From a virus (taxonomy: Duplodnaviria; Caudoviricetes), in IMG/VR virus record IMGVR_UViG_3300044856_000241, positions 96,001 to 160,000 of that record: a stretch of DNA of 64,000 bases; one strand, 5' to 3'. The notes beneath the pieces were generated by a model. That model did no database searches, was not told where the DNA came from, and was given only the letters and a program-made list of their open reading frames with translations. The position numbers were made by a program, and so were the translations under genes. How positions within the stretch are numbered: the stretch's first letter is position 1; each line of letters opens with the position of its first letter. Below, in pieces: positions 2,236-39,761 of this stretch.

Positions 2236-2493
2236 AAATTGTTGCTCCTTTGAAACTGCCGTTTCTACAGCTCATCAAATTCATTTTCTAACTTCTCAGT
2301 ATATTCATCAATCCACTTTTGTAACGCTGCCATCGTACTATTAGACATTCCGGCAGGAATTGAGATATTACTAAGAAGTTTGACGTCATAGTCGATTCTT
2401 CTTGCTTTTTCAAACGCTTCATATGTCATTTCAATTCGTCTCCTTTCAAAATAAGGGTTGGTCAGCGTGAAATTACCAACCAACCCTGTTATA

Positions 2494-2886
2494 TTATTCT
2501 CCGAGTCCTGCAATCATTTTATCTAGGTCTTCATCTGACATATTTTCTAACGCAGCGTCCTGGCGTTTTGCTTTAATCTCCAGAAGTCTCTGTTTCATTT
2601 CTTTATTCTTCTTTGCTTCTTCTCTTGCCTGCGCTTCAGCTAGTTTCACACCTACAATGTATTTCACAATCTCGATTTTCTCTGAAATTTCCTCGTCCTC
2701 TTTTGTTCTGGTATGGAGAAGGCTCTCTTCCTCTGACTTTTTCACTTCCTTATTTAATGTCTTAAATACGGAGTCAAGTCCTGTTACCGGAAGAGTCCAC
2801 AAATCAATCACATTGATCATACCTTTGTACGGGAACTGATAATTGTTACGTGTCGCTTTTTCAAATAAATCACTCATGATTTTCAT
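2494..2886 (-). CDS. conserved phage coiled-coil protein
   Basis: ORF; FPYKG...DLW motif, coiled-coil C-terminus. Confidence 0.7.
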   Translation of the reverse strand: MKIMSDLFEKATRNNYQFPYKGMINVIDLWTLPVTGLDSVFKTLNKEVKKSEEESLLHTRTKEDEEISEKIEIVKYIVGVKLAEAQAREEAKKNKEMKQRLLEIKAKRQDAALENMSDEDLDKMIAGLGE

Positions 2887-2899
2887 TCTCCTCTTTTTT

Positions 2900-4966
2900 T
2901 TAAAATTTAATCTTCATAATACGTTCTGTTGCACCTTTTACTTTGACAATCAATTCTGCTCTTTTTGTCATTGAGAAACCAAGACCAGAAAGCTGATCCT
3001 CGGTATCTTCTACATGGCATTTCGCACCAAGTGCTTCAAAGAATCTCTTATGCTGTGCTAATTTATTATCTAAATATTCATTGTAAAATCCGTTTGGATT
3101 CTCTGGATTGATACAGTCCTTCAAGAAGAAGAATAAATGTCTATGACCAATTCCATCCTGTTCGTCAAAATAATTTGGGCTATAACTAATTACTGATACA
3201 GGAACAAACTGGTTTGTATTTACACCCCAAATCTCACGACTTGAAATAGATGAACTTCCAGATAGCTTTTCCTTAATTGAGAAGTTGCCATTCTCGTCAA
3301 GTATAACTTCTGCCACCTGAACATTACCAGAAACAGGACTATTATATTCAAACGCAAAAATCTCACCATTGAATTCAATTTCTGCCTTAAATCCTTTACT
3401 TCCTCTCGCTGCATACTGATTAACAAAAAACTTATAAGCACCTGGCTTCATACGTGACATATCTGCCCATGTAATATTTTCCACAGAAGGTTTTCCTACC
3501 ATCTGCTCCATAGGATGTGTAATATCAATATCTAACTGACCGCCACATCTTGACATACTAGGTTTTCTACAATTACCGAAATAAATCTCGTTTCCATCAG
3601 GTTCTTTGCAATGTGCATCAAGGTCACTGTTGTCATTTTGTCCCTCATTCCACATAATTGAAAATCTGAGTACACCATCGACATTACCGCCGGCAGCTTT
3701 TACATTCTGCTTCATATCAGAATCAGTAATGTTTCCTGAATAAGCCCAAGATAATCCATTGTTCCATTTGAACATTGTCTTAGCATCTGGATTAACAGGT
3801 GCAATCATAGAAACAAAGTTCTTCTCATGTTTATTCTCTACAAAAGCTTCAATCTCCTTTGCAGTAGGAAGTACGTTATTAATGAAATCCTGTGCGGAAA
3901 TCTCTTCAACTCGTGAGAATTTTTTCGGACTTACAACAGCGTCCTTCTCCATCTGACCAAAGATATCATCAGCGTCCAACATTTTCCTGGCTGCATTTTT
4001 ATTAGAAAACAGCACATTATTTACGGTAATATCATTAAGATTTGCGAATCTTCTCTGTAATGAATCCATATAACCAAGTTCTGTAATTGTCTTTTTAGCA
4101 TCCTCAAGCATCTTCTTCGTAAAGATTGCCTTTGGTCTTCGATAGTTGATCGGAGCTACAATCTGCTCATATTTTTTAACTGCCAGATCAAGATCCATAT
4201 CTTTACTTACATTTACAAGCAATGTGCCGATGGAATGATTTCTAATTCTACCGATTGCCATGCCAGCTTTTACGGATTTCTCCCATGCATATAATTCTTC
4301 TTCTTCATCAGATTCCAAAAGCTCGTACTCTTTTTTGTATTTTCTAAACTCGGTCAGAACACTTTTCCATTCTTCACCTTTGTAGAGAGTATTAGAATTG
4401 ATTAACTCAAGAATTGTATCAAGAGCGTCCATAGTAATTTCATCCAGAGAACGTTTGAATACATTTCTTGTATCTCTGAACTGTCCTTTAACTTCCTCGT
4501 TAGAACGACTACTTCTATTTACGAACTTGCTTGGAAGCTCTAAGAAGAAATGATCCCACTGATGAGATTTTCCATCAATCTCTTCAAAATTGAAATCTGT
4601 TCCGATTTTATCAAATTTGCTGATATAAATATCTGTAACCGAATGAGATTTAACAAAAGCATCTAATGCATCACATACTGGCTGATAAGTAGTATCTCCA
4701 AGATTCAACTCCCAGATTGTATGCATCTGATTGTCTTTAATCATTACCGCATTACCAATTGATTTGATAAAATGACGACAGCATGAGCAATCATGCTCTG
4801 TCCGCTTTCGATATAACTTATTTGTTCCTGCTGGGAAACTGTTTAAATATGTCTCCCAAAGTTCACCTTTGTCCAGATTGACTTCAAACAAATAATCTGC
4901 TTTTTTCTGCATCTCATCAAAGTGTTTTTGAAGTTCCATTTTGAAGTTCATAAATCCATCTAACAT
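2900..4966 (-). CDS. large conserved phage protein with YfaP/DUF2135-like domain
   Basis: 688 aa; DLDAHCKEPDG.EIYF...GQLDIDI...VENITW motif; N-terminal HDCSCC. Confidence 0.6.
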   Translation of the reverse strand: MLDGFMNFKMELQKHFDEMQKKADYLFEVNLDKGELWETYLNSFPAGTNKLYRKRTEHDCSCCRHFIKSIGNAVMIKDNQMHTIWELNLGDTTYQPVCDALDAFVKSHSVTDIYISKFDKIGTDFNFEEIDGKSHQWDHFFLELPSKFVNRSSRSNEEVKGQFRDTRNVFKRSLDEITMDALDTILELINSNTLYKGEEWKSVLTEFRKYKKEYELLESDEEEELYAWEKSVKAGMAIGRIRNHSIGTLLVNVSKDMDLDLAVKKYEQIVAPINYRRPKAIFTKKMLEDAKKTITELGYMDSLQRRFANLNDITVNNVLFSNKNAARKMLDADDIFGQMEKDAVVSPKKFSRVEEISAQDFINNVLPTAKEIEAFVENKHEKNFVSMIAPVNPDAKTMFKWNNGLSWAYSGNITDSDMKQNVKAAGGNVDGVLRFSIMWNEGQNDNSDLDAHCKEPDGNEIYFGNCRKPSMSRCGGQLDIDITHPMEQMVGKPSVENITWADMSRMKPGAYKFFVNQYAARGSKGFKAEIEFNGEIFAFEYNSPVSGNVQVAEVILDENGNFSIKEKLSGSSSISSREIWGVNTNQFVPVSVISYSPNYFDEQDGIGHRHLFFFLKDCINPENPNGFYNEYLDNKLAQHKRFFEALGAKCHVEDTEDQLSGLGFSMTKRAELIVKVKGATERIMKIKF

Positions 4967-5207
4967 TGTTGTACTCTCCTTTTTCTTTATATATTAATAT
5001 TCTCTACAATCATATTGAATCCAAAAAGATAATTGCCAAAACAACCACTCAAACGTAAGCATTGCTCCGGTTCCATCTTTTAGATCATCACTGTCATATG
5101 AAAAATTGATTACCGGAAGGAAATTGAAATCTATACTGAAATAATCTTTGTTTTTATGTAGCAATCTATGTGCGTGTACACATAATCTTTTCTTTTTCTT
5201 CATAATA

Positions 5208-5531
5208 TTATTCTCTTCTGTTGATACCAAACAATTCACACATCTCTCCGCTTAACCGAGTAATTTTGAAAAATCTATGAGCAATCTCATCAAACATATT
5301 GCTTTCACAAATTGCTTTTGCTACTTTTAGTGGATTGCTTGACTCAATTACTTTTTCATACTCACGAATCATATCGTTATATGGCTCATAATCATACTCT
5401 CTTTTTGCAAGAACTCTTATGCGACTACGATAACATTTTTCAAGCTCTGTATTCGTAAGTTTGGAGAATAGATTTTTCGGTACTTCTTCGTCTTTATAAT
5501 CCCAATCTAATATTTTCATATCACACCTCAT
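5208..5531 (-). CDS. hypothetical protein
   Basis: ORF in block. Confidence 0.6.
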   Translation of the reverse strand: MRCDMKILDWDYKDEEVPKNLFSKLTNTELEKCYRSRIRVLAKREYDYEPYNDMIREYEKVIESSNPLKVAKAICESNMFDEIAHRFFKITRLSGEMCELFGINRRE

Positions 5532-5887
5532 AATTATCTACAAAACTCCACAATGATGTCTTGCACTGATTACACCTGTAACACTCTTCTCTTGTTACTT
5601 CATATCCGCCTGGACAATGAATTGTGCCAGTTTTACGTGCGTTTTCAACCATCTTGCTAATTGCTTCTTTTACATTTGTGTTCATATTTTCCTCTTGAAA
5701 TTTCGATTTCAGCGTTACTCTTCATAAACCAACTGATCATAGTTAGCTTTGATCCATACTTCATTATCAATTTTATCTTCATCTATACACAATGCTTCAT
5801 ATGAACCATTCAAAAATACGTCTGTATTTTCAATAAGTACACGCGCTTTCGGATCACATTTATTAAGTTGCGCCATCAGATCTTCTA

Positions 5888-8808: not shown

Positions 8809-10434
8809 TTATCCAATCGCTGATACAGCACGATCAAAATCTCTTTTAAAATACAGATAGTTGACTCTCTGATTGTTGCTATAGTTATTGTCTTCATTCT
8901 CATGTTTATGAATCCATTCACTAAACTCATCATCCATTTCAGTTTCACAAGCTTCTGCCATAAGAGCAATTAATGCCTTGTAACATTTCTGATATAACGG
9001 AGATGTGATATGAATTGAATCCTCTACCATATCTTTATAGAGAGCAATATCTTCTGCATCTACATTAAGATCTGTGTTTTGATTAACAAACTCAACCAAT
9101 TCGTCCTCTGGAATACTTTCTTGAGGATCATCAATGATTGCAACATCTTCTGTTTTATTTGCATTTGATTCATCCTCTACTACAGTATTCTCTTCCGGAA
9201 CTACAACATCTTCGGTTTCATTTGTTTTCTGAGATTCAGGAATTTCAGTCATATCATCAGTAACTTCTACATTATCTGTATTCTCTTCGTCCTGATGTGT
9301 AATTTCAATTCCGTTGTCTGTCATGAATTTGTTAATAAGTGTATGTAAAATATGAAGTTTTGCATTAATTACTCCGCGATCTTTTGTATTTTTGCTTTCA
9401 TCAAACTCAGACCATGTAGTATCAAAAGTTTCATTATTATATGTAACTTCTACATCAATGCCGGAGTAATCATCGAAATTTTTAAGAAACTCGCCAAAAG
9501 TCTCTTTAGTAATATTATTCTCCAAGGAATCTTTAAAAAACTTCATCCAGATGAATGCATTTTTCGGAGCGAATAACTCTTCAGCAACTTCCATAGTAGT
9601 GATATCCATTAACTGATCTAAAAGATTTTTCATCTCTTCAAACATTTCATCAGTTGCTTTTCCGTCAAGATACTGCCCCATCTTCTTTGCATTTTTTGTC
9701 CAATCATCCCAAAAATTTAATGCCATGATATTTTCTGCAATAATCTGGTTGATTCTTCCATTTTTATGGAAAGTTGGACTATAGTTTGCTTTGTCAGACC
9801 AAAAATCATGTTCAGCTAAATTCTTAATATGATTACCAATCTGAGCCATTCTGGTAAGAAGAATCTGTGCAGGTCTCATTTTTGTTCCACGATTATACCG
9901 GCGGAGATGACGGGCAATCTGCTCTCTATCACATTTGAAATGTTTAGTAATAGGTACCGCACAATTATCAAATCTTTCCTGGAGAACTTTTGGAAGATCT
10001 TCATATCCTTTATTTTTTAATGAAAATGTAACTTTTTTATATACCGGATTACCATATTCATCTTTTACGAAAGCACCGTTTTCATCTTTTTTCGCTTCCT
10101 GATAAATAACTTCTTCCGGTTCAATATTATTTCCGATTTTAAAACCGCCTGCTTTGAATTTTCTAAGATAAGTAAAACGCTGAAGCCCATCAATAATCCA
10201 AAGCATGATACCGTAAGAAGTATATTCTTCACAGATAATTAATGGATTAAATTTTTCATTAAGTAATACGGTTACAATAAAATTATCTCTATCCTCATTA
10301 CTCCACTGCTCTGCTTCTCTCTGTAAAAAGAAATCATCTCTGATATCACCTCTTTCCGCCATTGCGCAAAGTGAGCTACATAAGATAGGTTCTGTAGTAG
10401 TATTCTCTGTAGTAATTTCCATTGTTTTAATCAT
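8809..10434 (-). CDS. DUF262 (ParB-like/GmrSD N-terminal) domain protein with acidic linker
   Basis: LQR...QWS and IIDGLQRFT motifs. Confidence 0.7.
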   Translation of the reverse strand: MIKTMEITTENTTTEPILCSSLCAMAERGDIRDDFFLQREAEQWSNEDRDNFIVTVLLNEKFNPLIICEEYTSYGIMLWIIDGLQRFTYLRKFKAGGFKIGNNIEPEEVIYQEAKKDENGAFVKDEYGNPVYKKVTFSLKNKGYEDLPKVLQERFDNCAVPITKHFKCDREQIARHLRRYNRGTKMRPAQILLTRMAQIGNHIKNLAEHDFWSDKANYSPTFHKNGRINQIIAENIMALNFWDDWTKNAKKMGQYLDGKATDEMFEEMKNLLDQLMDITTMEVAEELFAPKNAFIWMKFFKDSLENNITKETFGEFLKNFDDYSGIDVEVTYNNETFDTTWSEFDESKNTKDRGVINAKLHILHTLINKFMTDNGIEITHQDEENTDNVEVTDDMTEIPESQKTNETEDVVVPEENTVVEDESNANKTEDVAIIDDPQESIPEDELVEFVNQNTDLNVDAEDIALYKDMVEDSIHITSPLYQKCYKALIALMAEACETEMDDEFSEWIHKHENEDNNYSNNQRVNYLYFKRDFDRAVSAIG

Positions 10435-11152
10435 GATGTTTTACTCCTTTCGATAAATTCATAAGTATTTTTGTATTTTTCTCACGACAAATCCGTTTGA
10501 ATGAGTTGTCATAAGTTTTGGTTGTAATATGTAAGATTTCGCAAATCTCTTCTTTTTCATACCGATTTGCGATCATTAAAATTATCTCTCGTTGCAACGG
10601 AGACAGTTTATGTAAAAAAGCTAATGTCTCAGGATGCCATTTATTGTATTCTCCGTTATCCTGATCACAAACGAATTCTTCCATGTTAAATCCATCACCA
10701 ATTACTTCATGAACTCCAAGTTCATTTCCATCTTTATCTGTTTTAATCGGTGCATCCAATTTTACAGTTGGTAAGATAACTGGTCTCTTTTTACCATCTT
10801 CCTTATCTTTTACCTCGATGATTCCATTCTCATTACACAGATAATTTGTTCTACATTCTCTTCCTTGATCTCTTGACCAATCATAAAACGCTCGCGCCAG
10901 ATTAGATTTAAAATATCCTTCGAATCTACTGTTCTTCTCTTTTTCATATGTAAGTACGGATTCAATCAAGACAAACATAGCTTCGTCAATCAGATCATCA
11001 TAGAATTCATTTCCATCCAAATTCTTCCGTTTGATCATTTTGTAACAGGATTTTTTTAATAATTTCATGTCATTTTCGCAATATTCTTTGCAAATATCTA
11101 ATTGCCACGGCTCCAGATCAAGATTCTCATAGTTACTCAGTCGCATTGCCAT
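10427..11152 (-). CDS. phage sigma-70-like factor
   Basis: region-2-like DDLIDEAMFVLIESVLTY...FEGY and C-terminal HTH LSPLQREI...EEICEILHIT. Confidence 0.65.
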   Translation of the reverse strand: MAMRLSNYENLDLEPWQLDICKEYCENDMKLLKKSCYKMIKRKNLDGNEFYDDLIDEAMFVLIESVLTYEKEKNSRFEGYFKSNLARAFYDWSRDQGRECRTNYLCNENGIIEVKDKEDGKKRPVILPTVKLDAPIKTDKDGNELGVHEVIGDGFNMEEFVCDQDNGEYNKWHPETLAFLHKLSPLQREIILMIANRYEKEEICEILHITTKTYDNSFKRICREKNTKILMNLSKGVKHHD

Positions 11153-11768
11153 CTACCTCATTTCCTTCTTCATCTGCTACTTCAACGATTCGATATCTGT
11201 ATTTCCGCCGTTTACATTTATTAATATTTGCTTGTACACCAGCTTTTGAAATCCCTCTTTTATCAAACGACTCAATAATGTCTTCCACAATATCCATCTC
11301 GTTCTTGATATCACGTCGTTTTCTTGCATTGATCCAGAGTCGCTTACACCATTTCCATGCAATATACATGTGGAACGATTCCGTAAACTCAATCTCATGA
11401 AGAATATCCGATCTCTCTTTATCAACCGTACTTAACTCTTTTGTAAGTTCAGGTTCTCTATCAATCGCTTCCTGAAGGATTTCTCTAGCAGCACCAATTT
11501 TCCCAACCCACCTTGTTACATTATCCGACGGCTCATATCCGGTATTCTCAATCACTTTCGGCTGTACTTTCGGTTTTGGCTCTGGAATATCTGGAATCGC
11601 TTCCACGTAAAAACCCATCTTTTTGAGTTGTTTAGGCAGTGCTTGTACAATATTGCAAGCTTTACTATACTCAAAAGTCCCTTTAAATTTTTCTGAGCAC
11701 GATACAAACCGTCCATTCTCATCTAAACGGATATATGTATTTCTCTTATTTTTGATCATATACCGCAA
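11133..11768 (-). CDS. conserved hypothetical phage protein
   Basis: ORF; DILHEIE...RRDIKNE motif. Confidence 0.65.
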   Translation of the reverse strand: MRYMIKNKRNTYIRLDENGRFVSCSEKFKGTFEYSKACNIVQALPKQLKKMGFYVEAIPDIPEPKPKVQPKVIENTGYEPSDNVTRWVGKIGAAREILQEAIDREPELTKELSTVDKERSDILHEIEFTESFHMYIAWKWCKRLWINARKRRDIKNEMDIVEDIIESFDKRGISKAGVQANINKCKRRKYRYRIVEVADEEGNEVDGNATE

Positions 11769-12153
11769 TTTTTACCACTTCCTTTCTTCCCCACTGTATT
11801 CTCTACTGAATTTGGGTAAACTTAATAAACCTATTTATGTTTCAAAATAAGTATGAAAGACAAAAATTTTTGACTGTAAAAAATACACTTATTTCGTAAA
11901 AATAAGAAAATTAATTTCAATATTCAGTTTTGATTGTGTTGGATTGCCTTACGAACTGTAATTATGAAAAATATTATAAAAAATAAAATTACCAATAATT
12001 GCCAAGTGATTGACAATGTTGAATAAAATATGTAAAATGAAATTGTCGTATAGCAACCTGTTTGTTATATGATTCTGTTTGAAAACAGCTAGTGCGAGGG
12101 ATTGCCGTCCCGTTTGTAGCACTGGCTGTTTTCTTGTTTGCAAGAATAATGAT

Positions 12154-12199
12154 AGAACAAATGTTCTTATTTGTCAATAGTTTTCCGAACGTCTGTTCG
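12154..12199. promoter_or_regulatory. two LexA (SOS) boxes at a minus-strand sigma-A promoter
   Basis: AGAACaaatGTTCT 12154-12167 and CGAACgtctGTTCG 12186-12199; minus TTGACA-17-TATCAT. Confidence 0.8.
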
Positions 12200-12235
12200 T
12201 GTCTGCGTTCTGTTTTTTGTTTGATGTCACCATTA

Positions 12236-12499
12236 TCATTCCAATCTCACTTGAGGGAATGATAAATTATGAATTAACGACTCTGGTACACCGTCCACCC
12301 CACATAACGAAATCCGTGAAAAGAAATCGTTGTCTTCATAATTAATACCTGAAGCATTATGGATAATTCGTTTGCTTTCCGTTTTATTAATTCTTGCTGG
12401 TTTCGTGTGAACGTATGTAACAGTATCAATCGTATCAATCCATATAAGTCCCTGAGCTTCGTCAATCATTTTTTTTGCCGTCTCTTTGCTAACGTACAT
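12236..12499 (-). CDS. hypothetical protein
   Basis: start MYVSKE after SD GGAGG, coupled to upstream stop. Confidence 0.55.
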   Translation of the reverse strand: MYVSKETAKKMIDEAQGLIWIDTIDTVTYVHTKPARINKTESKRIIHNASGINYEDNDFFSRISLCGVDGVPESLIHNLSFPQVRLE

Positions 12500-12879
12500 T
12501 ACGCCAAGACCTCCTTCCAATTGATGTCCTCTCCGTAGAAATATGAATTGAAGCAAACTTTATTAATCATATTTCTTTCAGACTGAGAAGTAACTGAACC
12601 AATCTTTCCAATCACTTCGTCTTTTGATATTGTAAATGGCTGTTCTCCAAGAACCATAGAAAATAAATTCAGACCGTTTTCTCCATCGGCTTCCAGGCAA
12701 CCATGTACAGGCATATCTGTCTTTTTAATTTTTGAAGTCAAAGGCATAACAGTAATTATATTTGAATGACGTGTGCCAATTGCGTTGCTTACGATCACAT
12801 ATGGACGTTTCTTAGTTTGAACTGATCCATGTTCATATTTAATTTCTGCTGTGATAATATCATATCTTTTCAGATCCAT
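12499..12879 (-). CDS. PemK/MazF-family toxin (no adjacent MazE)
   Basis: GSVQ.K.RPYVIVSN...ITVMPLTS...VLGEQ motifs. Confidence 0.8.
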   Translation of the reverse strand: MDLKRYDIITAEIKYEHGSVQTKKRPYVIVSNAIGTRHSNIITVMPLTSKIKKTDMPVHGCLEADGENGLNLFSMVLGEQPFTISKDEVIGKIGSVTSQSERNMINKVCFNSYFYGEDINWKEVLA

Positions 12880-12949
12880 ATGTATCTCTCGCTCCTTCCT
12901 CTTATTATGTAAATTGCCTTTGTTTTTCTTTTCTCTTTCTATGGTTTAC

Positions 12950-13027
12950 ATTATATATCTATAGATAGTGTATGTCAAGATATATTATTGTAAAATATAT
13001 TATTTTTTGATATTATATCTATAGATA
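12950..13027. promoter_or_regulatory. divergent promoter region with two TATCTATAGATA operators
   Basis: palindrome at 12956-12967 and 13016-13027; perfect minus TTGACA-17-TATAAT (12978-12950). Confidence 0.65.
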
Positions 13028-13045
13028 TATAAGGAGAATATACCA

Positions 13046-13288
13046 ATGCTCAAATTTAAATTAAAAGAAATACTTGAAGAGGAACACAAATCAGGATACT
13101 GGTTGTCTAAATCGACTGGTATAGCCGCAAATGCAATTAGTAAAATGTGTAATCAAGAAACAACAAGCATCCGATTTGACACATTAGAAAAAATTTGTCT
13201 TGCTCTTAACTGTACTCCAGATGATTTATTCGAAAGTACTGATAAACAATTTAATATTCTTATCAATAAAGAAGACGGTACAAAATAA
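13046..13288 (+). CDS. XRE/Cro-C1 HTH transcriptional regulator
   Basis: LSKSTGIA...IRFDTLEKICLALNCTPDDL. Confidence 0.85.
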   Translation: MLKFKLKEILEEEHKSGYWLSKSTGIAANAISKMCNQETTSIRFDTLEKICLALNCTPDDLFESTDKQFNILINKEDGTK

Positions 13289-13300
13289 TGTACCGTCTCT
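13272..13300. terminator. bidirectional hairpin between convergent XRE and recombinase genes
   Basis: AGACGGTACA...TGTACCGTCT. Confidence 0.6.
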
Positions 13301-13311
13301 TCTTATTATAT

Positions 13312-14289
13312 TTATAATCCTTTTAACATCTCTTTCATACCAACGGCACCATTTGAGTAATTGTTAACTGTCGTTGTCATGGATGTATGTCGTAACTGTT
13401 GCTGTGCAAATGCAATATTACCGGTTGTTCCAAGAAATGTGGCATACCAATGTCTCATCATATGTGGTGTAATTCCGTTTCCGTTATATTTAAATAACTC
13501 TTTAATAGTACTTTCGGTAACACGACTCCCTTTCTTAGTCAAAAACAAAGCCTCGCTATCAGGTTCCATACTTGCCCTAAGTACGATCCATTCACTTAAT
13601 TTCTTTGCTGCACTGTCAGTTAGAAAAACATCCTTCTTTTCAATTTCTCTATAATCTCCTTTACCAATTACACTGATATATGGCATGTCATCATTGAGAT
13701 GGATATCTCCTAAATCTAATCCGGCACACTCAATTTCTCTTATTCCAGTCCATTTTAATGTATAGAAAATTGCTAGATTTCTAATGCGCCAAAAATCATC
13801 TTTTCTGTTAGCTAATTTCTGTTCCATAGAATCCATTTGTGAATCGGTTGGCAGTTTCTTAAATAATCCATTTCCAGTTGACACGCCTCTGTATGATACA
13901 CTTCTTACAATATTATAATCAACTGGACATTTTCTACTTCTTACTAAATACTCCCAGAAACTACTAATTCGATTCTTTTCTGTTCCAAGCGTCGTTGGGG
14001 CGATACCGTTTGTTTCTCTTTCTCTTAAATACATCGTCACATCTTCAGCCTCAATCTCCAGGAAGTCTTCCGGTTCAATTTCTGAAATACTATCCTTTTT
14101 AATCAGTTTCTTTTCAATCGACCAGTTCAATAACTGTTTAATTGTAGCCCAATATGTGATGCAACTTGATTTGCTTTCCAAATTGATAAAATACTTCTGA
14201 ATAAACTGTGGAACACTATCTTGCTCAAATCTTCGCTGTAAATTTTCTTCATTTTTCTTCTGAACTTCATCTTTGTACATTCTGATCAA
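13312..14289 (-). CDS. tyrosine recombinase (XerC/D-like), catalytic residues intact
   Basis: TGIR (R), GKG (K), HMMR (HxxR), LRH (H), NNY (Y). Confidence 0.9.
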   Translation of the reverse strand: MIRMYKDEVQKKNEENLQRRFEQDSVPQFIQKYFINLESKSSCITYWATIKQLLNWSIEKKLIKKDSISEIEPEDFLEIEAEDVTMYLRERETNGIAPTTLGTEKNRISSFWEYLVRSRKCPVDYNIVRSVSYRGVSTGNGLFKKLPTDSQMDSMEQKLANRKDDFWRIRNLAIFYTLKWTGIREIECAGLDLGDIHLNDDMPYISVIGKGDYREIEKKDVFLTDSAAKKLSEWIVLRASMEPDSEALFLTKKGSRVTESTIKELFKYNGNGITPHMMRHWYATFLGTTGNIAFAQQQLRHTSMTTTVNNYSNGAVGMKEMLKGL

Positions 14290-14475
14290 CCTACCTTTCA
14301 GTATTTCTTAATGTGATTAAAAAAGATTCACAAATTCCAAATATTTGACAAAATGCTTCGTTCTTTTCTTTCTTTGAAAATTCATTATATCCATAATCAG
14401 ATATCCTTTTTATTCTTTCAAATAAATCTACCAACAATTGAGTAGAATCATTTTTATTATTTTCTTTTGCCATAT

Positions 14476-14760
14476 TTAACCTACCTTTCTGCTATTTATG
14501 TTCTCTGTTGGATAATATTTACTTCTGATCCGACGTGCAATAACCATTTTTTCTTCAAAGTCATCACAAAATCTGACTTCTAAATTTTTAGTCGTAGAGT
14601 ATTTTTCTGAACAAATTTTATTAGCACACCATATGTCTTTAATGTGATTATTCGGTCTTTGATGTCTCCTCTGTAATCCATCTACTACAAAATTTTCCTG
14701 TAAACAATGTAAGCAAATAAATCTCGAACACTTCTTCGGATTTCCATTCTTATATCTCAT
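14476..14760 (-). CDS. Cys-rich (zinc-ribbon) hypothetical protein
   Basis: CLHC...HIKDIWC...C. Confidence 0.55.
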   Translation of the reverse strand: MRYKNGNPKKCSRFICLHCLQENFVVDGLQRRHQRPNNHIKDIWCANKICSEKYSTTKNLEVRFCDDFEEKMVIARRIRSKYYPTENINSRKVG

Positions 14761-14970
14761 ATATTCTCTCTTTTCTCCAATAAAAAAGAAGCAGAATTGA
14801 TCTGCTTCCATACTTTATACATTATTTATTTTTCTTCAATATTTCCGTTACCTGCGCTACAGGTATTTTATATATTGCAGCCACTTTCTTTTTATCTCCA
14901 ACCGTTTTATATTCATTTACTATATCCTGATCTGTAAACCCATAATCCACCGATTTGTTTATACAATTTT

Positions 14971-15285: not shown

Positions 15286-15406
15286 ATATCTTTCCCTTCT
15301 TTCCCCATATGACAGAGTATATCACATTTCTTAACGAATAGCAAACAAATGTTTGTATAAAAATACCGCCAATGATTTCTCATTGACGGTATTAATCTTA
15401 CCAATT

Positions 15407-16312: not shown

Positions 16313-16544
16313 ATTTTTATTTTTCTCCTTTTGAAATGTCTGTTTCGTTATCTTTAATCTTATCTCTTATCATATCTATACACTCAAAAACCATATCTTC
16401 TGGAATTTGATTAGCAATTTCTTCTACGTTATCATATGTTGCTCCTATACAATAAGCAATACAGCAAGCCATTTCGCTACACATCTCGATTGGATGTATT
16501 TTAATTTTATCTATTTCCATAATATATTCCTCATGAAAACAATT

Positions 16545-17078
16545 TTATCTATCCAAATATTTTACAGGTACTTCTTTAGTAAGCCAAACATTATTTACAG
16601 ACAAGAAAAATTTATACCCATCTTTATACATTTGACCTGCGTTTACTTGATATACAATTTCTTTTCCATGTCTTTTACCAACCTGTTCTGCTGTAGTTAT
16701 ATCTTTTGAGAGATGAACATACAACCTACTCTTTGGAATTAATCCAATCTTATCAATTGATTCGATATACTTCTCACCAGTTCCATGATACAAGAATTCC
16801 GGTGGACACTTCTCTTCTAATTCTACATCTACAGGAATAGAATGTCCTTGATTAGCACGAATTAATGTCATGTTATCATTGAAAGAATAACGCTGTTTGT
16901 TATCTGTCTTTACAATTTCTTCCAACAATTCAAAATTAAATCCATGATTATCTTTTTCGATTCCGCTTATCAAGTCATTTACATTTGCCCATCCATGCTC
17001 ATCAAGTTCAATTCCAATAACATCTGGTTTGTGTCTTAGAATTAAACTCATATATTTACTAATACTATTTAAATCCAT
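16545..17078 (-). CDS. kptA: RNA 2'-phosphotransferase (Tpt1/KptA)
   Basis: LSLILRH-like MSLILRH, KQRY, IRANQGHS, LYHGT, RLYVHLS, VWLT motifs. Confidence 0.92.
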   Translation of the reverse strand: MDLNSISKYMSLILRHKPDVIGIELDEHGWANVNDLISGIEKDNHGFNFELLEEIVKTDNKQRYSFNDNMTLIRANQGHSIPVDVELEEKCPPEFLYHGTGEKYIESIDKIGLIPKSRLYVHLSKDITTAEQVGKRHGKEIVYQVNAGQMYKDGYKFFLSVNNVWLTKEVPVKYLDR

Positions 17079-17119
17079 TTGTATCTCCCTTTTCTCTTCC
17101 TATTTATGAAAACAATCTT

Positions 17120-17416
17120 TCATTTATAATAAAGTCTACTATGTACTTCGCTACATGGAAAATTTTTTCTTATTGACTTTACCATTAATTTCGCATAAGT
17201 CTTTAGTCTTATTATATCATCAATGTCATCAGCTTTAGCAGAACAGATATGAATAACTTTATGTTGTCCTAAGTGACAACTTTCTTCTTTATTAACTGTA
17301 ACTACAACTTGTATCTCACATTGAGACATTTCCCATATTTCAATCCATATCCAATTTGGAGTAGGATACATTTTTATTTCTTGTATAACCTTATCATCAG
17401 ATAGCAATATATTCAT
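17120..17416 (-). CDS. hypothetical protein
   Basis: start MNILL after SD, bounded by junction motifs on both sides. Confidence 0.6.
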   Translation of the reverse strand: MNILLSDDKVIQEIKMYPTPNWIWIEIWEMSQCEIQVVVTVNKEESCHLGQHKVIHICSAKADDIDDIIRLKTYAKLMVKSIRKNFPCSEVHSRLYYK

Positions 17417-17448
17417 AATACCACTCTCCCCATGAAAGCAATTTTTCA

Positions 17449-18761: not shown

Positions 18762-19027
18762 CTAATCACCTACCTGTTGAAATCGTTATTTCTTAGTTGA
18801 AAATAAACTGAAAGTCTCTATCATTTATTTCCACTGTAACAAGTTGTTTATTGTTGTCAAGAATATCTACAACCGCACTTTCATATTTTGCATATGCTGA
18901 TGTGCATTTATATTCCTTACCCTCTGTAAAGTGGTCGTCTGTTTTTCTACAAATAGCTTTATTATTTTCCATTTTTCTATCTCCAATCATCGCAAGAAAG
19001 TCGAATTTCCAATTATTTAAACTGCTT

Positions 19028-19276: not shown

Positions 19277-19558
19277 AATAATCTGCCTCCTTTTAAGACA
19301 TGAAAGTTAAATTTCAACACATTTAAAATTTAAAATATTGACCAGGATAAGCATCCATATGTCCGAAACATACATTATCAAACCAAAGATATCCTTGATT
19401 ATCCCATGTAATTGTTTCCCCTTTTTCGATATGGACTTCTTTATTTACATTATTATTCTCTTTAGTAAATCCAATACCATCAAAATCTTCTATACATACT
19501 GCTGTACTCATTTTTACAGTCTCCTCTCATAATCATCTGAAAGTTAAATTCCTTTGCC

Positions 19559-20321: not shown

Positions 20322-20921
20322 GTAAACTATGATAAAACTTTATATTTCATGTTTCTTTACATATGACCATGTAATATATTCTGGCGGTTGACCACAGATT
20401 TTAAACATTGTTACATTCTTACACCCAGATCTGATCAATCCATTTGCCTTTATTCTACCCTGACTTATATCATCAAAGTCGTCAAAAATCCAAGGTTCCG
20501 TTTCCGTAAATCCATTTCCGATTTTATCATTATAAGCAACTGCATACCTTTCGTTTTTCATAATTTATTTTCCATTCCATTTTTAAAACCTAGATTTCTT
20601 CTAAAATTGTCGCCACTCTGCTCATAATTATTTGTCTTTTATGGTTCTCAAAATCATTTTCTGCTCCTGTATAGCTATAATCTGGCAACCATCCTCTAGC
20701 AATATTTCTGATTTCTTGTGCTAATTCATCATTTGTCATTTCTGAAATTTCTTTTGATTGAGCATCATAATCTTCTTTATCATATTCCGTTACTGTATAT
20801 GTTCTCATATTTTATTATCTCCCTTCGAAAACTTGGTTTCAATCTATTATTTTATATTACATTATTCTCTGTCTACTTGCAAGAAAACGGTCTGCCAAAA
20901 ATAAGGCAGACCGTTTTATAT

Positions 20922-21536: not shown

Positions 21537-21915
21537 AATATTTGTCCTCTCTTTCTTATCTTATACTTTCTTATCTTGTTAACTTCTCTAATTTATTTTG
21601 ATATCTTGTTACCCAACGTCGGGCACTTATAAATGTTTTACATTCCACAAAATATGGTATATTCGGATCTAATGTATTAGACACTCCGTACTTGCCTTTA
21701 TAATTCTTTTCAATATAAACTAATTTTTCTCCAAATTTAGCACACCATGTAGTATGTTCTCCATTTTCGTCAAATTCTGTCATTACGTCCCAATCAAATT
21801 TCATTTATATCACCCATTTTCTTAATTATACATCGAATGTTGTCTAATTTCAATACTTTTCCCATCTAATTATCAGACAATATAAGCTAAATTTCCATTT
21901 GAAATTCATCTTTCA

Positions 21916-25160: not shown

Positions 25161-25468
25161 TTTTATCTACCTGCCTTTCACTGATATATTCTCTTCGCTT
25201 CCAATACGAAAAGCAGACAACCTAAGTCATCTGCTTTTCATTAATACATATAATCAAGTAAGTTATTTACTTCACTTGCTGCCGTTTCAATACTGTTAAT
25301 AGAGGTCACTGCATATGGTTCAGTTTCTCTTAAATAATCCGCAAGTGCTTCTAACATATCCGCTACAGCATTCACAACATCATCGACACCACATTCGATG
25401 TCATTGTCTTTTAAAATCTGTTCATATTTTTCTTTCATAATTTTCTCCCTTCGAAACACAATTTTCAT

Positions 25469-25903
25469 TTACTTTGTAACTTTGTATCCTCTTTTTTCAA
25501 TTTCTGTAATCAAATCTTCGTCGGTGTATGATTCAAAATTATAATCAACAATTCCGCTTTCTTCCAACCAGCATTCATTTTCTGGATCAAAAACAAATCG
25601 CCAATTACAATTATCATCGCCAGAATATGTCATTTTACCTTCTTTGATATATGGTACCAAAGCATTTAAAAATATAAGTGTTTCATCTTCATGATATTTA
25701 TCCGTATCATAAATAGAAATCTCATTTTCATTAACAATATCAAATTCAAATTCAATTGCACACAACTCGTCCAATATATCGTTAAGTATTTCTTCAACTT
25801 GTCTAATATTTACGCCATCTTTAAATGTTGCAATTCCATCTCCATTTGCATAATATCCTACGATCTTATCCTCTCTTTCTACCATCTGAAATGCAGTTTT
25901 CAT
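25469..25903 (-). CDS. hypothetical protein (true start probably downstream of junction motif at 25888)
   Basis: ORF bounded by junction motifs. Confidence 0.6.
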   Translation of the reverse strand: MKTAFQMVEREDKIVGYYANGDGIATFKDGVNIRQVEEILNDILDELCAIEFEFDIVNENEISIYDTDKYHEDETLIFLNALVPYIKEGKMTYSGDDNCNWRFVFDPENECWLEESGIVDYNFESYTDEDLITEIEKRGYKVTK

Positions 25904-26452
25904 TTCCTACATTTTTATATTAAATGTCCTATTACTGCAGGAAACACATCAAATTTTGTACCTAAAACTGTTTTGATTTTATAATTTTTATTTTTTAAGA
26001 AGTTTATTAAAAATTGCAATTTGTCTTCTTTCTTAATATTTTTTATTCTTTCATCTAATTCTTCATAATGAGTTTTTTCTAAATATCCATAAAAGACGAC
26101 AGCAGTTTTAAGTTCTAAGATTTCAATTGCATCAATCATAATGTTCACCTCCCAAAAAATATGTTTTCATTCTTTCTTCACTTCAACTACTAACATATAT
26201 TCTTCATAATCACGAAAAACAACATAATGTTCGCATCTATCAATATTAAAATATTGTGCCATCCTTTCGTCTATTTCTGTTCCATCAAGTTCTTGCGAAT
26301 ATGATTCCGCATAATAAAAGCCACCTTTTTGTTTGACCAAATATAGCGAATTATTATCAAGAAGATTTCGCAACGTCTCTTCCGCTTCTTCTTTAGTTAA
26401 AAGCCATGAATTTTGCTTTATCATAATTTTCTACCTCCTTGAAATGTGCTTT

Positions 26453-26935
26453 TCATTTGTTTTTATTCAATATTACTTTTGCCATGCTCCAATCTTCACT
26501 ATTGATTAGCTTGACAACTTTTTGAATTATACATGCTAACTCTATATCATAAATTCTATAATGGAAAGCTGCACTGACTTCATTTCTATTACCATGGAAA
26601 TCTATATATCTATTTATATCTAAATTACCATAGTACATGTCCTTTGGTGTTGTAAAATGATGTTTTCTTTCAATAATCTCCTTCAACATTTCTAGTGGAT
26701 TATTATAAAATCCGTTAAACTTAAAATATTTCCCTTCGTTTTCTATCAACTGATCCTTTCTTGTTTTGTTCTCTTCTATCTTCCATTTATCGTCAGGCTC
26801 TCTTCGATTGAATACAAAGAATTCTTCTCCATCTTTTACCATATATGTAGGGTAATAATAGCAACTTCCTGTATATGGACTATCATCATAATATCTTTCT
26901 TTTTCTATAAATTTAATCATAAAACCGTCCTCCAA
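26453..26935 (-). CDS. hypothetical protein
   Basis: DFHGN..EVSAAFHYRIYD motif; stop overlaps junction motif. Confidence 0.65.
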   Translation of the reverse strand: MEDGFMIKFIEKERYYDDSPYTGSCYYYPTYMVKDGEEFFVFNRREPDDKWKIEENKTRKDQLIENEGKYFKFNGFYNNPLEMLKEIIERKHHFTTPKDMYYGNLDINRYIDFHGNRNEVSAAFHYRIYDIELACIIQKVVKLINSEDWSMAKVILNKNK

Positions 26936-28437: not shown

Positions 28438-28699
28438 AATATTTGCCTCTTTTTCTAATTTTGAAATCTACGTTTCAACCTATGTATATCCTTACAACCC
28501 AGTCATTAATCTCGACTGCATTTGGTGTTTGTTTCAAGTTGTTTTCTGTAAGCGGCAACTCACCCCATACGCCATATTCGTCTAACAAATGAACCTCTTT
28601 ACCTTTATTTTCTTCTATAATCTGTTTAACTGTTTTTTCTACCATATTTCCTGCCTTTCTAATCTAAAGGAATGCGAATTTCAAATACTACTTCCATTC

Positions 28700-29317
28700 T
28701 TACATATATTCGTTCATTTCGCGTTCCATATCTTTTTCATATTGTTCATTCCACCATGCAGCATCTTCTTCCCATTCCTTTTCCCTTGTTTCCTTTTCCT
28801 GTTCAAGATTTTTAATCTTACCTTTTATAAAATCTGGAATATAAATGTGCTTATATATCGTAAGTGGATTATCAAATCTTGTATAATCATCATCTGTCCA
28901 TATAATGAAACCACCAAAAGGAAGAAACTGTACCTTATCTCCTTCACTAATTACTAAAGCACACGAAGCTGATAAATCAAGGTGAATTAAACTCTTCATT
29001 TTAGGATACATATATTTTGCATTATATGATTCCTTATCAGTTTCATAATCTCTTCTAAAATGATGTTTTGTAACACAGACATACTTGCTATACATAAAGA
29101 ATTTCTTTTTTACCTTGTACTTATATTCTCCATTCTCATCTCTCCATTCTTTATCAAGCTCACTTCGAAATCCCATTGGATTAGTCTTACATTTTACTTC
29201 TGTAAGATCTTCCGATAAAGCTCTGTAGAACTCAAGCATTTTGTATTTATCGCACATTTTACGTAATTTTTCTAAGACTTTTTCAAAATTGTCTTCTGTT
29301 ACAGTAATTTTTCTCAT
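28700..29317 (-). CDS. hypothetical protein
   Basis: start MRKIT after GGAGG, bounded by junction motifs. Confidence 0.65.
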   Translation of the reverse strand: MRKITVTEDNFEKVLEKLRKMCDKYKMLEFYRALSEDLTEVKCKTNPMGFRSELDKEWRDENGEYKYKVKKKFFMYSKYVCVTKHHFRRDYETDKESYNAKYMYPKMKSLIHLDLSASCALVISEGDKVQFLPFGGFIIWTDDDYTRFDNPLTIYKHIYIPDFIKGKIKNLEQEKETREKEWEEDAAWWNEQYEKDMEREMNEYM

Positions 29318-29814
29318 ATCTGTTACCTCCGTTTCTTCTAATGAAACACGCATTTACTGCGTAATCTTTCCATTATTTTTCATTTCTTTTAATTCGGACA
29401 AAGCTGAAATCATCGTTTTATGCTATTTTTTGTCTTTACTTAATTGTGTTATATATTTCATCTCTTTTATCCCATGCAAAAATTAGAATATTTAACAATT
29501 CTTCTGGTAATTCAGATATATCCTTTATATTCATACCTGTCAGCATAAATTCGTTTTGCTTTAGCCATCTAACCACCTCATTCTGTTAAAATATATCCAT
29601 TTTCTAACATTTCTTTGATTACTATCTGTGCATATTCATCGGTCTTTGCATCTTCATCAATATATTCCACTGTACCATTTGCTAAATCTAATTTTGCAAT
29701 AACCATACCTTCTTCACTATCGTTATTTGTTTTCCATGCATTGACTATATACTTTTCTTCCTCTTCATTGAAGAAGTCGCATCTAATATCTCTCCATTTA
29801 CCCATAATTTTGTC

Positions 29815-30120: not shown

Positions 30121-30595
30121 ATACTTTCCTCATAAACTTATCGTTTCATCATTACAAAATATATTCTCCTGTTTCTAACGATTGTGGTATTAACTGCACA
30201 TAATCTGGATGGCTTACAAATTTTACATATTTCAATATGTATTCCTCTACATTGTTGAATTCCTCTTCGTCCATTTCATTCGCATCTTTCAATCCAAGTT
30301 TGAATTTTTGTGAAACATTATTTACTGCATCCTCAATTGGATAATATTTTTTACTCATGATATTCCCTCCATTTTCCATTTGAAAATCTTGTTTCATACT
30401 TCTATTCTGAAATCTCTTCCGTAAAACAACCGGACTGATAACAATTACTCGGTGCTTCTCTTCTGCCTTCAAAAATGTCATTCTTTACAATTTCCTCAGC
30501 CTCTTCTTTATTATTTGCTTCTACTTCATAATTTCCACTGTAACATTCGCTATAAGTAACTAAATATTTTTCATGTTCAACACAATCCTTTCTAA

Positions 30596-31706: not shown

Positions 31707-31797
31707 ATTGTTACTCCTTTGAAAGTTTTATTTCTACTGTATTATTCTCCATAAAAAATAAGACATTAGCGATTTGCTAATGCCTTATTTTTGGGAA

Positions 31798-32438: not shown

Positions 32439-33248
32439 TTAAAAGTATATACAACGGGATATACTTTCTATATTTAGTATATACATAAGTATATCCATTG
32501 TCAACATTTTTTTAATTTCTAACAAATTCCGTTCTCTCTGAACTCAGCAAGCAATCCGTATCGTTTGCCCAATGTTCTGAAATAACTCTGCCAATACCCA
32601 AGTTCCATCCAGGAATAATTGTGATTTTTAAAATCAAGCTGCCATTCGATAGCCTGATTTCTAAGTTCCTGTTTCCGTTTTTGATATGTATTCATTTACA
32701 TCAGCCATCCTTTTCTACAATAATTCAGTCAATACTTCCATTCGTTCGTGCTTAAAACCAATACACGCAAGTGTTTGAGCAATTCTTTCCGCATATCCTT
32801 GATGATTCTGTGCAAATGCCAGCTTCATACATTTTTCAACAATATTATCCATGGATTCAGCTTTATCAAATTCCTCTTTTGCATTTTCAGCATTTCTAAT
32901 AGCTTCTTCCATAAGTTTTTCACATCTTGTATATTCTACTTTTGTCATACTTCCCCTCCTAATGAAATTGCTATTTCAGAATAATTTAGAGATGCCTCGG
33001 ATAAGTAAGCATCTCTAATATCGTTATTCCACTTCTATATTCTCTTACAAATTGTCCAAGATCCATCGCTCTGCAAAATCCAGAACTAACTCTGGAAAAT
33101 TACATGCATTTTCATCATAATTGAATGTATTCCCAACAAGTGTTGTCTCAATACTTTCGCTTTCTTCATAGATAATTTTGTATTTTTTTAAATTACCGAC
33201 TTCTCCTACCAATTCAATTCTTAATACGTTCATAAGTACCTTTCTTTC

Positions 33249-34451: not shown

Positions 34452-34519
34452 ATGTATTCTCCTTTCGTAATAAAAGAGAGTAGATTTCTCTACTCCCTTA
34501 AAATAATTCTTTCAACTGG

Positions 34520-36893: not shown

Positions 36894-36908
36894 TTCACAT
36901 TCTCCTCT

Positions 36909-37217: not shown

Positions 37218-37464
37218 TTTTAATAAGGCAGATACATTTCTGTACCTGCCTTATGTATTCTCTGCGTTAAAATTACAATTTCAACGACTCCATTCACCAA
37301 CTTTATTTCCGTTTATGTCCATAATGGAACCGCTTGTATGTCCTGCCTCTAACCTCTCACAGACATCTTCTAATACTCGTTTTAATTCAATCGCTTCCCA
37401 AAATTCACTTTCATCTCCTGTATCTGGATCACAAAATGCTGCGTTTCCTGTTTTGATTTCACAT

Positions 37465-37977: not shown

Positions 37978-37978
37978 G

Positions 37979-38413: not shown

Positions 38414-38699
38414 ATTAGCAACCTGCCTTTCCTAATTCTTTTACTACCATGTATGCTCCATACAAAATATCTTTGCATGTAGTTGCATTGATATAACCAA
38501 TTTTTCTTTTACCATCTCTCAAAATGTGGAACTGATTACCGCTCTCGATGCTGACTTCTACCGAAATGTCGAAACCGTTTTCTCTGATTTTTTCTAAATA
38601 ACTGTCAATCATTTTGCATTTCTCTTTTTCAATGTCATCTAAATAACCGGTAACTCCGTACTGCCATTTGATATATTTTAATTCCATGATTACTCCTTC

Positions 38700-39191
38700 T
38701 TAACAATACTGTCTCTCTTTACCACGCATTATATTTTCACCTCTGAAACAATCACCGCAATATTCCCATACACCTTCAGATACTTTCTTGAATGTTGCAA
38801 ATGTGGATTTCCATTTACCGATTTTATCATCATATCTCTGTGTGCTTGGCTCACCAATCTGCGAGCAATCTCTTCTCATACAAGCCGGCGGTAAACAATC
38901 CATTAAATCGTCAACTATATCTTCTTCAACATAGTCACCAATTTCTAATGCATTAATTCCAAAATACCAAGAATTGTTATACACTGGTTTTCCGTTATAT
39001 TCTCTGCATGGTTCTAATTCTTTTCCCTTATATTCACGTTCTGTAATATAAAGTTCTTTATCAAACCACGGATACTTTGCATAATTCCGTAAATACTTTT
39101 CTGCTAATTCCTTAACTGGGAAAATTGTCGGATTTCCAGCAGATAACTCATTTCCATTGTGTTTGTATACAACCATATATCCTGTTTTCAT
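38700..39191 (-). CDS. hypothetical protein
   Basis: CLPP...QIGEP...TFATF...WEYCGDCFRG motif. Confidence 0.65.
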   Translation of the reverse strand: MKTGYMVVYKHNGNELSAGNPTIFPVKELAEKYLRNYAKYPWFDKELYITEREYKGKELEPCREYNGKPVYNNSWYFGINALEIGDYVEEDIVDDLMDCLPPACMRRDCSQIGEPSTQRYDDKIGKWKSTFATFKKVSEGVWEYCGDCFRGENIMRGKERQYC

Positions 39192-39487
39192 ATCAATTTC
39201 CATCCTTTCCAATAAAATAAGCAGATACAAGAATATTCTCTGTATCTGCTTTGGGTTTACAAATTAATTGCGTTTCCGTTATCATCATATTCAATCGGTA
39301 CAATATGAACGGCATACCCGATTTCTTTTTCTTTGTCGTAAATTTCCATCGTGCCGCTAACTGCAAATTCAAAATTGAATCGTTCATTATTTTTCTCTAC
39401 TAAGTCAACAATATAATCGACTAATTCATTCAAATTCTGCGCATCTCGTTGCTGTTTTTCAATATCTGTCATTTTTATTCACCATAC

Positions 39488-39535
39488 ATACTATATATAG
39501 TGTGTATACAATCACACAGCCACTACATATAGTTT
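39488..39535. promoter_or_regulatory. tandem NrdR boxes
   Basis: ATACTATATATAGTGT and CCACTACATATAGTTT, 32 bp apart. Confidence 0.7.
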
Positions 39536-39761
39536 TATTTTGCTTATGAAATATCTCATTCATTTACCTAACATTTTTTCAATGAATCACGTTCTTTTCT
39601 TAATCTTGCAACCTGGCTCATTAATTTTTTATTCCCATCAAGTAACACCTTTACATTATTCTGTAATGCTTTCCGTGATTGTTTCATTCTAAGCAATTCA
39701 TCTTCAAGTTGCTCAATGTAATGGTTCGCTTCTTCGAGTTCGTTATACAAAAAATCACCTC

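Follow-up and report, generated by a model that had tools for sequence, protein, structure and literature searches.

A short dyad-symmetric DNA site, (A)TGAAA-N6-TTTCA(T), about 16–18 bp long, occupies some 20–30 gene junctions in the early/accessory arm of the phage genome represented by IMG/VR virus record IMGVR_UViG_3300044856_000241. The stretch analysed here, referred to as the window, comprises the 64,000 nucleotides from base 96001 to base 160000 of this 203,624-bp record, and coordinates below are those of the window unless stated otherwise. Within one genome, each site has its own 6-bp centre, and this centre stays in place when the gene on either side of it is replaced. Gene-content differences between related phages end at these sites much more often than expected, and the sites are probably true crossover joints, whatever the mechanism of exchange may be.

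The window's own genome is called G000 and five relatives that were taken whole are called G001 to G005. Together with one GenBank record, MT835469.1, they make up the seven genomes of the comparisons below, while L010, L017, L026 and L028 are further records among the sources.

A strict core between stop codon and ribosome-binding site

The core GAAA-N6-TTTC is found 23 times in the window, compared with 3.98 ± 2.16 expected copies and a maximum of 10 in 100 shuffles. The whole genome contains 43 copies with a 6-bp spacer and 4–17 copies with any other spacer between N0 and N12. For the longer core TGAAA-N6-TTTCA, the genome has 26 copies with N6 and 0–1 with N4, N5, N7 or N8. When exact cores that are followed by a Shine-Dalgarno (SD) sequence and a start codon are counted over the seven genomes, the N6 form is found 123 times, compared with 12 for N5 and 11 for N7. 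A preliminary description of this DNA had proposed an inverted repeat with a fixed 6-bp spacer, and the shuffles confirm its enrichment, which according to the genome-wide scan is specific to this spacing.

All 17 exact copies listed in that description are present. Six further exact copies exist, three of them within the range it covered (6803, 25716 and 38336) and three outside (49486, 57571 and 59558); these are mostly located in coding sequence or in the divergent region and may be of chance origin. The 14 copies that had been regarded as near-exact are a mixed group. Ten of them have one mismatch and four have two, and the one-mismatch class as a whole does not exceed its N5 and N7 counterparts. 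Cross-genome comparison nevertheless validates seven of these copies (19539, 20585, 28669, 29343, 29406, 34500 and 37269), and they are referred to here as worn sites.

The placement of the sites follows a simple rule. Read on the coding (minus) strand, the majority of copies are located between a stop codon and the SD sequence that follows, or overlap the stop codon, as had been noticed earlier, and they end 1–8 nt 5′ of the SD sequence. A TGA, TAA or TAG stop is often part of the left arm, and junctions of 28–55 nt contain nothing besides the site and the SD sequence. The sites do not overlap recognisable promoters, and the plus-strand arm of the window has no junction copy, in agreement with the first observation. 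Exact cores are found between stop codon and SD sequence at 25453..25466 (centre ATTGTG) and 5′ of an SD sequence at 31721..31734 (TAAAAC). At 26441..26454 (AGCACA, common to G001), the TGA of the site is itself the stop codon; at 21901..21914 (GATGAA, kept in G001), the exact core covers a stop codon; and at 16333..16346 (CAGACA, common to G001), the exact core is followed by an SD sequence and ATG. For the exact core at 25888..25901 (ACTGCA), the status as a junction site hinges on the choice of start codon.

Many units between sites consist of a single gene. The bracketing of single genes that had been suggested holds for the gene at 17120–17416, which is enclosed by the exact sites at 17108..17121 (GATTGT, also in G001 and MT835469.1) and 17434..17447 (AATTGC, shared in the same order with G002, G003, G005 and MT835469.1). 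It applies in part to the kptA/Tpt1 gene (16545..17078, minus strand; PF01885, E = 3.8e-46), a single-gene unit that has the exact site at 17108 upstream and a two-mismatch copy at 16535 on its other flank.

The dyad symmetry extends beyond the core, with A preceding TGAAA and T following TTTCA. As RNA, the element could form a stem of 5 bp with a 6-nt loop, which averages −0.12 kcal/mol and gains no additional pairs from the centre. Arm variants in the seven genomes include none that is G·U-tolerant and none that is compensatory, and one-mismatch copies are at background; the long dyads of the genome are terminators. The negligible stem energy, the strict core and the symmetric flanks argue for a DNA site that is recognised by a protein, and a free-standing RNA hairpin, which the preliminary description had offered as an alternative, was rejected. 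The strictness and symmetry of the core, together with its constant spacing, suggest that a DNA-binding protein with sequence specificity recognises it as a dimer or in pairs. An extended dif-like site of 28 bp with 11-bp arms was also considered and rejected, because no 11-6-11 dyad with the motif core is found in G000 and identity is near background beyond the 14-bp core.

Ordered centres and homology boundaries among relatives

The motif is enriched in all five whole relatives, with 24–33 copies compared with 1–7 in the control. MT835469.1, an independent record from another country, has 25 sites versus 0 in the control, and the centres it shares are in the same order. TGAAA-N6-TTTCA is absent from Enterocloster phage PMBT24 and Bacillus phage BUCT082. 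In each of six genomes, which have 18–32 junction sites apiece, every centre occurs just once, and this uniqueness argues against a release of single genes as circles between adjacent sites. Across 25 sources, the shared centres are collinear (AAGATA, TGCGTG, TTCGCA, CTAAGA, GAACTG, TAGCAA, CAAGAG, CCAAGT, TTTAAC, AATTGC, GTTCGA and so on), and this order is kept among phages with core proteins that are only 21–54% identical.

The linkage between centres and genes was compared for 272 junction sites. When the upstream gene is different, the centre is the same in 109 pairs versus 3, and when the downstream gene is different, it is the same in 293 pairs versus 2. Because the centre remains unchanged when either neighbour is replaced, it is a fixed marker of a slot and not a tag that travels with a cassette, which does not support the integron-like part of the earlier idea. 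Even when both flanks are unrelated, the centre is the same in 221 context pairs, compared with 6.9 expected (32-fold). Identity in these pairs is limited to positions −1 to +21; it is near background outside the 14-bp core and extends weakly into the leader.

Individual sites illustrate this distribution. The 14-mer of the exact site at 32964..32977 (TAGCAA) has 21 occurrences among the sources, which represent 15 contexts (8 upstream, 12 downstream). The centre of the exact site at 20827..20840 (CCAAGT) recurs in G001, G002, G003 and G005 in 8 different contexts, and this site is also a breakpoint between G000 and G001. The exact site at 5697..5710 (TCGAAA) has an identical 14-mer in G001 and G004, the centre of the exact site at 19302..19315 (TTTAAC) is also present in G003, G004, G005 and MT835469.1, and that of the worn site at 37269..37282 (TTGTAA) is found in G004, L010, L017 and L026.

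An example of an exchanged module is a gene of 217 amino acids, called here gene X (28700..29353, minus strand), which has no match in Pfam and PHROG. Its protein is 91–99% identical and its nucleotide sequence 88–98% identical in 23 IMG/VR records, the surroundings of which barely align with the window, and the gene seems to have spread recently. In all 23 records, homology starts at the worn site that forms its upstream joint (29343..29356, TGCGTG); the genes upstream of this site differ, and their TGA, TAA or TAG stops overlap the left arm. At the downstream joint (28669..28682, worn, TTCGCA), homology stops just past the site or past the SD sequence that follows it. The worn site at 29406..29419 (CGATGA, centre also in G001 and G004) opens a slot that is closed by the exact site at 28463..28476 (CGTAGA). 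This slot holds gene X and a small gene in the window and another gene in G001, the closest relative. The slot between TTCGCA and CTAAGA has 8 different contents of 182–554 bp in 8 genomes. The approximately 49 nt between two neighbouring sites (29357–29405) are an open frame that ends in TAA, like the 3′ end of a lost gene, and this stretch looks like what a deletion with its end at a site would leave behind.

Further boundaries are of the same kind. The exact site at 2252..2265 (CGGCAG on the coding strand, between stop codon and SD sequence) is a homology boundary between G000 and G001, and the G001 copy is worn. Replacements between G000 and G001 are bounded by the worn sites at 20585..20598 (one mismatch, TCTAGG) and 34500..34513 (GAATTA), both common to G001; at the latter, 3.6 kb are replaced by 0.9 kb or vice versa. 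Directly after the exact site at 30382..30395 (CAAGAT, CAAGAG in relatives), G001 has an extra gene. A 230-bp segment delimited by the exact sites at 18779..18792 (TAACGA) and 18996..19009 (TTCGAC) is 96.5% identical in distant relatives, and a 716-bp segment with 93.9% identity in L028 has an end at the worn site at 19539..19552 (one mismatch). For the segments that were recently exchanged between this phage and the distant group, five of six ends are located on a site.

These examples are reflected in the overall numbers. Eighty-three of 1450 distinct breakpoints are within 3 nt of a site, compared with 7.4 expected, and a breakpoint is present at 42 of 91 motif junctions versus 236 of 1126 other junctions (odds ratio 3.2, p = 4e-7). 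The comparison of breakpoints with the motif, which had been proposed as a check, thus places gene-content changes at the sites, and the sites are favoured joints, although not the sole ones. In an unbiased survey of 14-mers, two sequence classes recur in unrelated contexts: the site-plus-centre words, and a promoter-like box together with a terminator. Assembly chimeras were judged to be an unlikely source of these patterns, because the shared islands are 14–22 bp long and the same joints are present in several metagenomes and in one GenBank record.

Sites of this geometry are also abundant in phage SPbeta (NC_001884), which has 36 TRAAA-N6-TTTYA sites versus 3 in the control. In the stretch examined (81500–100000), 10 of 12 sites occupy gene junctions, for example yoqC/yoqD and yoqD/yoqE, and no palindrome is annotated in the parts of the record that were examined. 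SPbeta has a second kind of repeated intergenic element, SPBRE, which is found in approximately ten promoter regions and is bound by MrpR, a protein with a tyrosine-recombinase fold; yopP, a second tyrosine recombinase gene of SPbeta, is a core gene of the group (PMC10516654). Despite the likeness of both as repeated intergenic elements in an SPbeta-type phage, the identification of the palindrome with SPBRE, the MrpR operator, was rejected. The four SPbeta regions examined, upstream of aimR, yorE, yopV and yopM, share a AAAAATATGTATATA-like box and not the palindrome, and the SPbeta palindromes form a separate set. Homology to MrpR was likewise rejected for the tyrosine recombinase encoded at 13312..14289 of the window, which has no significant similarity to YopR/MrpR, and two proteins of approximately 300 amino acids without assigned family, taken as MrpR-like candidates, have no PDB match. 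The promoter-like box of the 14-mer survey, (C)AGAGAATA(T)ATAAA-like, is located 15–30 nt 5′ of start codons, often after a terminator. In the window it precedes the genes that start at 45281, 37208, 26920, 25160, 22552, 11768 and 4966, and across relatives the AGAGAATA-type box is found in as many as 10 contexts that are unrelated to each other. A promoter or operator specific to the phage is a possible identity of this box, which may also be the counterpart of SPBRE.

A proposed mechanism and its alternatives

In the explanation that we favour, each site would be the target of a sequence-specific protein, inserted between a stop codon and a ribosome-binding site, and its unique 6-bp centre would act as an address that is kept in the same order among relatives. 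When two related phages are present in one cell, the exchange of DNA would take place within a site and would require both partner sites to have the same centre. A single event would swap everything on one side of the site and two events would swap a single slot; gene order would be kept and nothing would be deleted within a genome. The favoured chemistry is a conservative strand exchange across the centre by a phage tyrosine recombinase. We infer the need for identical centres from the collinearity of the shared centres, and likewise infer a recombinase as the agent. That a tyrosine recombinase catalyses exchange at same-centre sites has, in our estimate, somewhat less than an even chance. 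The full proposal, namely that SPbeta-type phages including this one possess a natural, recombinase-driven and same-centre-only cassette exchange, by which co-infecting relatives would trade accessory and anti-defence genes slot by slot, is given a probability of roughly 0.35.

Several observations are consistent with such an enzyme. Inverted arms around a fixed 6-bp centre are the layout of tyrosine-recombinase core sites, as the preliminary description had pointed out, and tyrosine recombinases require identical overlap regions. The recombinase gene that it had named is present in the window, its catalytic residues are kept, and its product may act on the sites. This candidate enzyme is an Xer-like tyrosine recombinase of 325 amino acids (13312..14289, minus strand; PF00589, E = 4.7e-18), the gene of which is located midway along the arm. 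Among PDB structures it is similar to XerA and XerH; its R..E, K, H..R and H residues align with those of XerH, and a Tyr is near the aligned position (residue table of PMC10516654). The motif also looks like the inner arms of difH (AGTTATGAAAA ...) and difSL, which are GAAAA..TTTTC on the two sides of a central region (PMC5357621). The genome has three tyrosine recombinase genes, at genome coordinates 24865–25365 (minus), 109351–109815 (minus) and 167721–168293 (plus), the second of which is in the window. Each motif-bearing record searched has 2–4 PF00589 genes, and three such genes, or 2–4 in the relatives, are unusually many for a phage.

Other observations weigh against this proposal. Among the motif-bearing records, no recombinase orthologue is common to all, and the enzymes belong to several groups; homologues of the enzyme encoded at 13312..14289 are found in G001, G004 and G005 only, and none in G002, G003 and MT835469.1. 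The conserved arms of 5–6 bp are shorter than the 11–13 bp of characterised simple tyrosine-recombinase sites. Most breakpoints are located elsewhere, typically at gene borders without the motif, after an SD sequence or at a start codon, and therefore gene-boundary recombination also occurs independently of the sites. A role in gene expression would likewise be compatible with the constant location directly 5′ of the SD sequence. Finally, a neutral-rate test of the centres at orthologous junctions had 21 usable pairs and 10 usable sites, which is too few for power.

A possible alternative, although far from assured, is that the sites bind a phage regulator, as operators or roadblocks that silence the early arm, and that the joints are a by-product of rare recombination at short identities, by host or phage functions, followed by selection, similar to the elements called PeSLs, or promoter-early stem-loops, in T4-type phages. 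In this view, the sites with the leader and SD sequence downstream of them would be the sole stretches that unrelated genes have in common. The frequent breakpoints at motif-less junctions and after SD sequences agree with this possibility, and so do the weak extension of island identity into the leader and the recurrence of the promoter-like box and the terminator in unrelated contexts. The geometry of the site, 14 bp in total with arms of 4 bp and a centre of 6 bp, is also that of operators for Cro/CI-type helix-turn-helix dimers, which is known from the operators of phage 434, and six of the seven genomes encode a conserved HTH_3 protein. The remaining genome, MT835469.1, however, has the sites but no HTH_3 homologue, and an operator function is not easily reconciled with sites that avoid recognisable promoters. 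T4-type phages offer a precedent for exchange at short repeated elements (PMC2839356, PMC4122927), but 14 bp is very short for homologous recombination, and a search of G000 for RecA, RecT and Erf found none of them. In addition, a regulator that recognises only the arms gives no reason for the same centre to be retained after the replacement of both flanks.

It is unlikely that the sites are purely regulatory, i.e., repressor-like and comparable to stoperator blocks in a lysogenic or plasmid state, with a link to mosaicism that arises only because survivors break at gene borders. Their location in short intergenic spaces, often on the stop codon, is shared with the stoperators of Cluster A mycobacteriophages (PMC9283540, PMC6550527), and the ParB-like, MazF-like and HicB-like genes of this phage would suit a maintained prophage or plasmid. 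Against this stand the approximately twofold higher frequency of breakpoints at motif junctions, the 32-fold excess of 14-bp islands with unrelated flanks and the collinearity of centres between phages with such divergent core proteins. The distinction between the SPbeta palindromes and the MrpR-bound SPBRE points in the same direction.

Still less probable is a function at the mRNA level, in which the motif would be an intercistronic hairpin, a protein-binding site or a processing site, for example for a MazF-like RNase, that tunes translation or stability. The motif is always in the transcript just 5′ of the SD sequence, and a MazF/PemK-like nuclease is encoded in all seven genomes. Nonetheless, the mean hairpin energy, the absence of additional pairs from the centre, the lack of wobble-tolerant or compensatory arms and the background level of one-mismatch copies argue against it, and dyad symmetry would be meaningless for a nuclease that acts on single-stranded RNA.

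A true integron-like system, in which an integron-type integrase cuts out single-gene cassettes, each with its own site, as circles and integrates them at a primary site, would agree with the many single-gene units and with gene-plus-site indels such as the extra G001 gene, which has its own worn site after the CAAGAG site, but it is highly improbable because the centres are linked to neither neighbouring gene and are unique within a genome, the 14–18-bp sites have no attC-type double boxes, an attI or Pc arrangement is absent, and the recombinase reaches 82 bits on the XerA/integron-integrase model, far below the cut-off of 220 bits. From the “integron-like array” of the preliminary description, the sites at gene-content changes and the presence of a recombinase are thus retained, whereas attC-like structures of 57–141 bp, IntI, attI and Pc are absent.

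The phage and its relation to known systems

The 203,624-bp record has a terminal redundancy of approximately 1.9 kb, and a rough gene call gives about 234 mostly small genes in a 120-kb minus-strand arm with plus-strand arms on both sides. A megablast search of the region against GenBank phages yielded no match. A 956-amino-acid protein (56824–59694, plus strand), for which no Pfam family was found, matches the region of a YonO-type or 'RdRp-like' single-chain RNA polymerase in Enterocloster phages and a Spbetavirus. Identity to its counterpart in MT835469.1, a 176-kb phage record from human faeces, is 76%, and the protein is kept in all seven related records with 21–76% identity. The polymerase match and the likeness to MT835469.1 indicate that the phage is a large gut phage of the SPbeta type, but a distant one.

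The variable arm includes a conserved block (8809–15853, minus strand). It encodes a 541-amino-acid protein that resembles GmrSD_N/DUF262, which is a lead only, a sigma-70-like factor (10427–11152), the MazF/PemK-like RNase kept in all seven genomes (12499–12879), the Xer-like recombinase and a HicB-like antitoxin (15407–15853), all on the minus strand. Together with a ParB-like gene (51887–52930), the MazF-like and HicB-like genes suggest that the phage is maintained as a plasmid or prophage. At 62402–63856 (plus strand), a beta-CASP/RMMBL (RNase J-like) gene adjoins a tRNA-Asn gene (62083–62159, plus strand).

The origin of phage mosaicism has been debated between linker sequences at module borders and random illegitimate recombination that is sorted by selection. 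The phage described here offers candidate linkers that can be counted, with a strict core, a unique address for each position and footprints of exchange across many natural genomes. Because sites with the 5-6-5 geometry are abundant in SPbeta, a laboratory phage of Bacillus subtilis, the idea lends itself to standard genetic experiments. Involvement of a recombinase would mean that tyrosine recombinases have a natural role of a new kind, and the phages would be a source of sets of orthogonal sites. Otherwise, the sites would be a clean second example, beside the PeSLs of T4-type phages, of short conserved elements that channel gene exchange. In the literature searched, no described natural counterpart of unique, ordered centres was found, and no relevant paper on the motif string or the SPbeta palindromes.

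Several known systems share individual features with these sites. The PeSLs are also short repeated intergenic elements in hypervariable early regions of large phages, and insertion, deletion and replacement boundaries between relatives are likewise located at them. They are composites of a sigma-70 promoter and a terminator that are alike genome-wide and recombine by homology, which leads to deletions and mini-circles (PMC2839356, PMC4122927). In contrast, the sites described here are 14–18 bp long and contain neither a promoter nor a stable stem (approximately −0.1 kcal/mol), and the unique centre of each copy would prevent exchange within a genome.

The pdif/dif modules of Acinetobacter plasmids likewise have inverted arms around a 6-bp centre and many sites per replicon; their modules are found in different contexts, homology ends at the sites, and a tyrosine (Xer) recombinase is suspected in both cases. 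The pdif sites, however, are 28 bp long, have distinct 11-bp XerC and XerD arms, alternate in orientation and are served by host enzymes (PMC6449649, PMC13141974, PMC7399989). In the present case, conservation is limited to symmetric arms of 5–6 bp, the replicon is that of a phage, the ordered centres are common to relatives and the enzyme is a candidate. Integron cassettes with attC sites are similar as arrays of mostly promoterless single-gene units between imperfect palindromes, accompanied by a tyrosine recombinase gene, but the sites of the phage are far shorter, do not travel with the upstream open reading frame and are found without IntI, attI or Pc.

The stoperators of Cluster A mycobacteriophages resemble them as tens of short protein-binding sites in short intergenic spaces inside operons, often at stop codons. 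Stoperators are asymmetric 13-bp sequences that are oriented with transcription, have no variable centre and are bound by a known repressor (PMC9283540, PMC6550527). In the phage described here, in contrast, both the site and its flanks are dyad-symmetric, and the binding of a protein is predicted.

Thus, the sites work like PeSLs and dif modules, yet without the defining features of both, namely a promoter-terminator unit and a 28-bp XerC/XerD site. The closest parallel to the proposed logic comes from the laboratory. Heterospecific lox and FRT sites for Cre and Flp have the same arms but different spacers and do not recombine with each other, and a segment between them can be swapped without deletion. 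The sites of this phage likewise combine identical arms with a different spacer at every position of one genome. Such engineered sites, with arms of 13 bp and a spacer of 8 bp, are a product of laboratory design, whereas the phage may represent a natural version with many slots.

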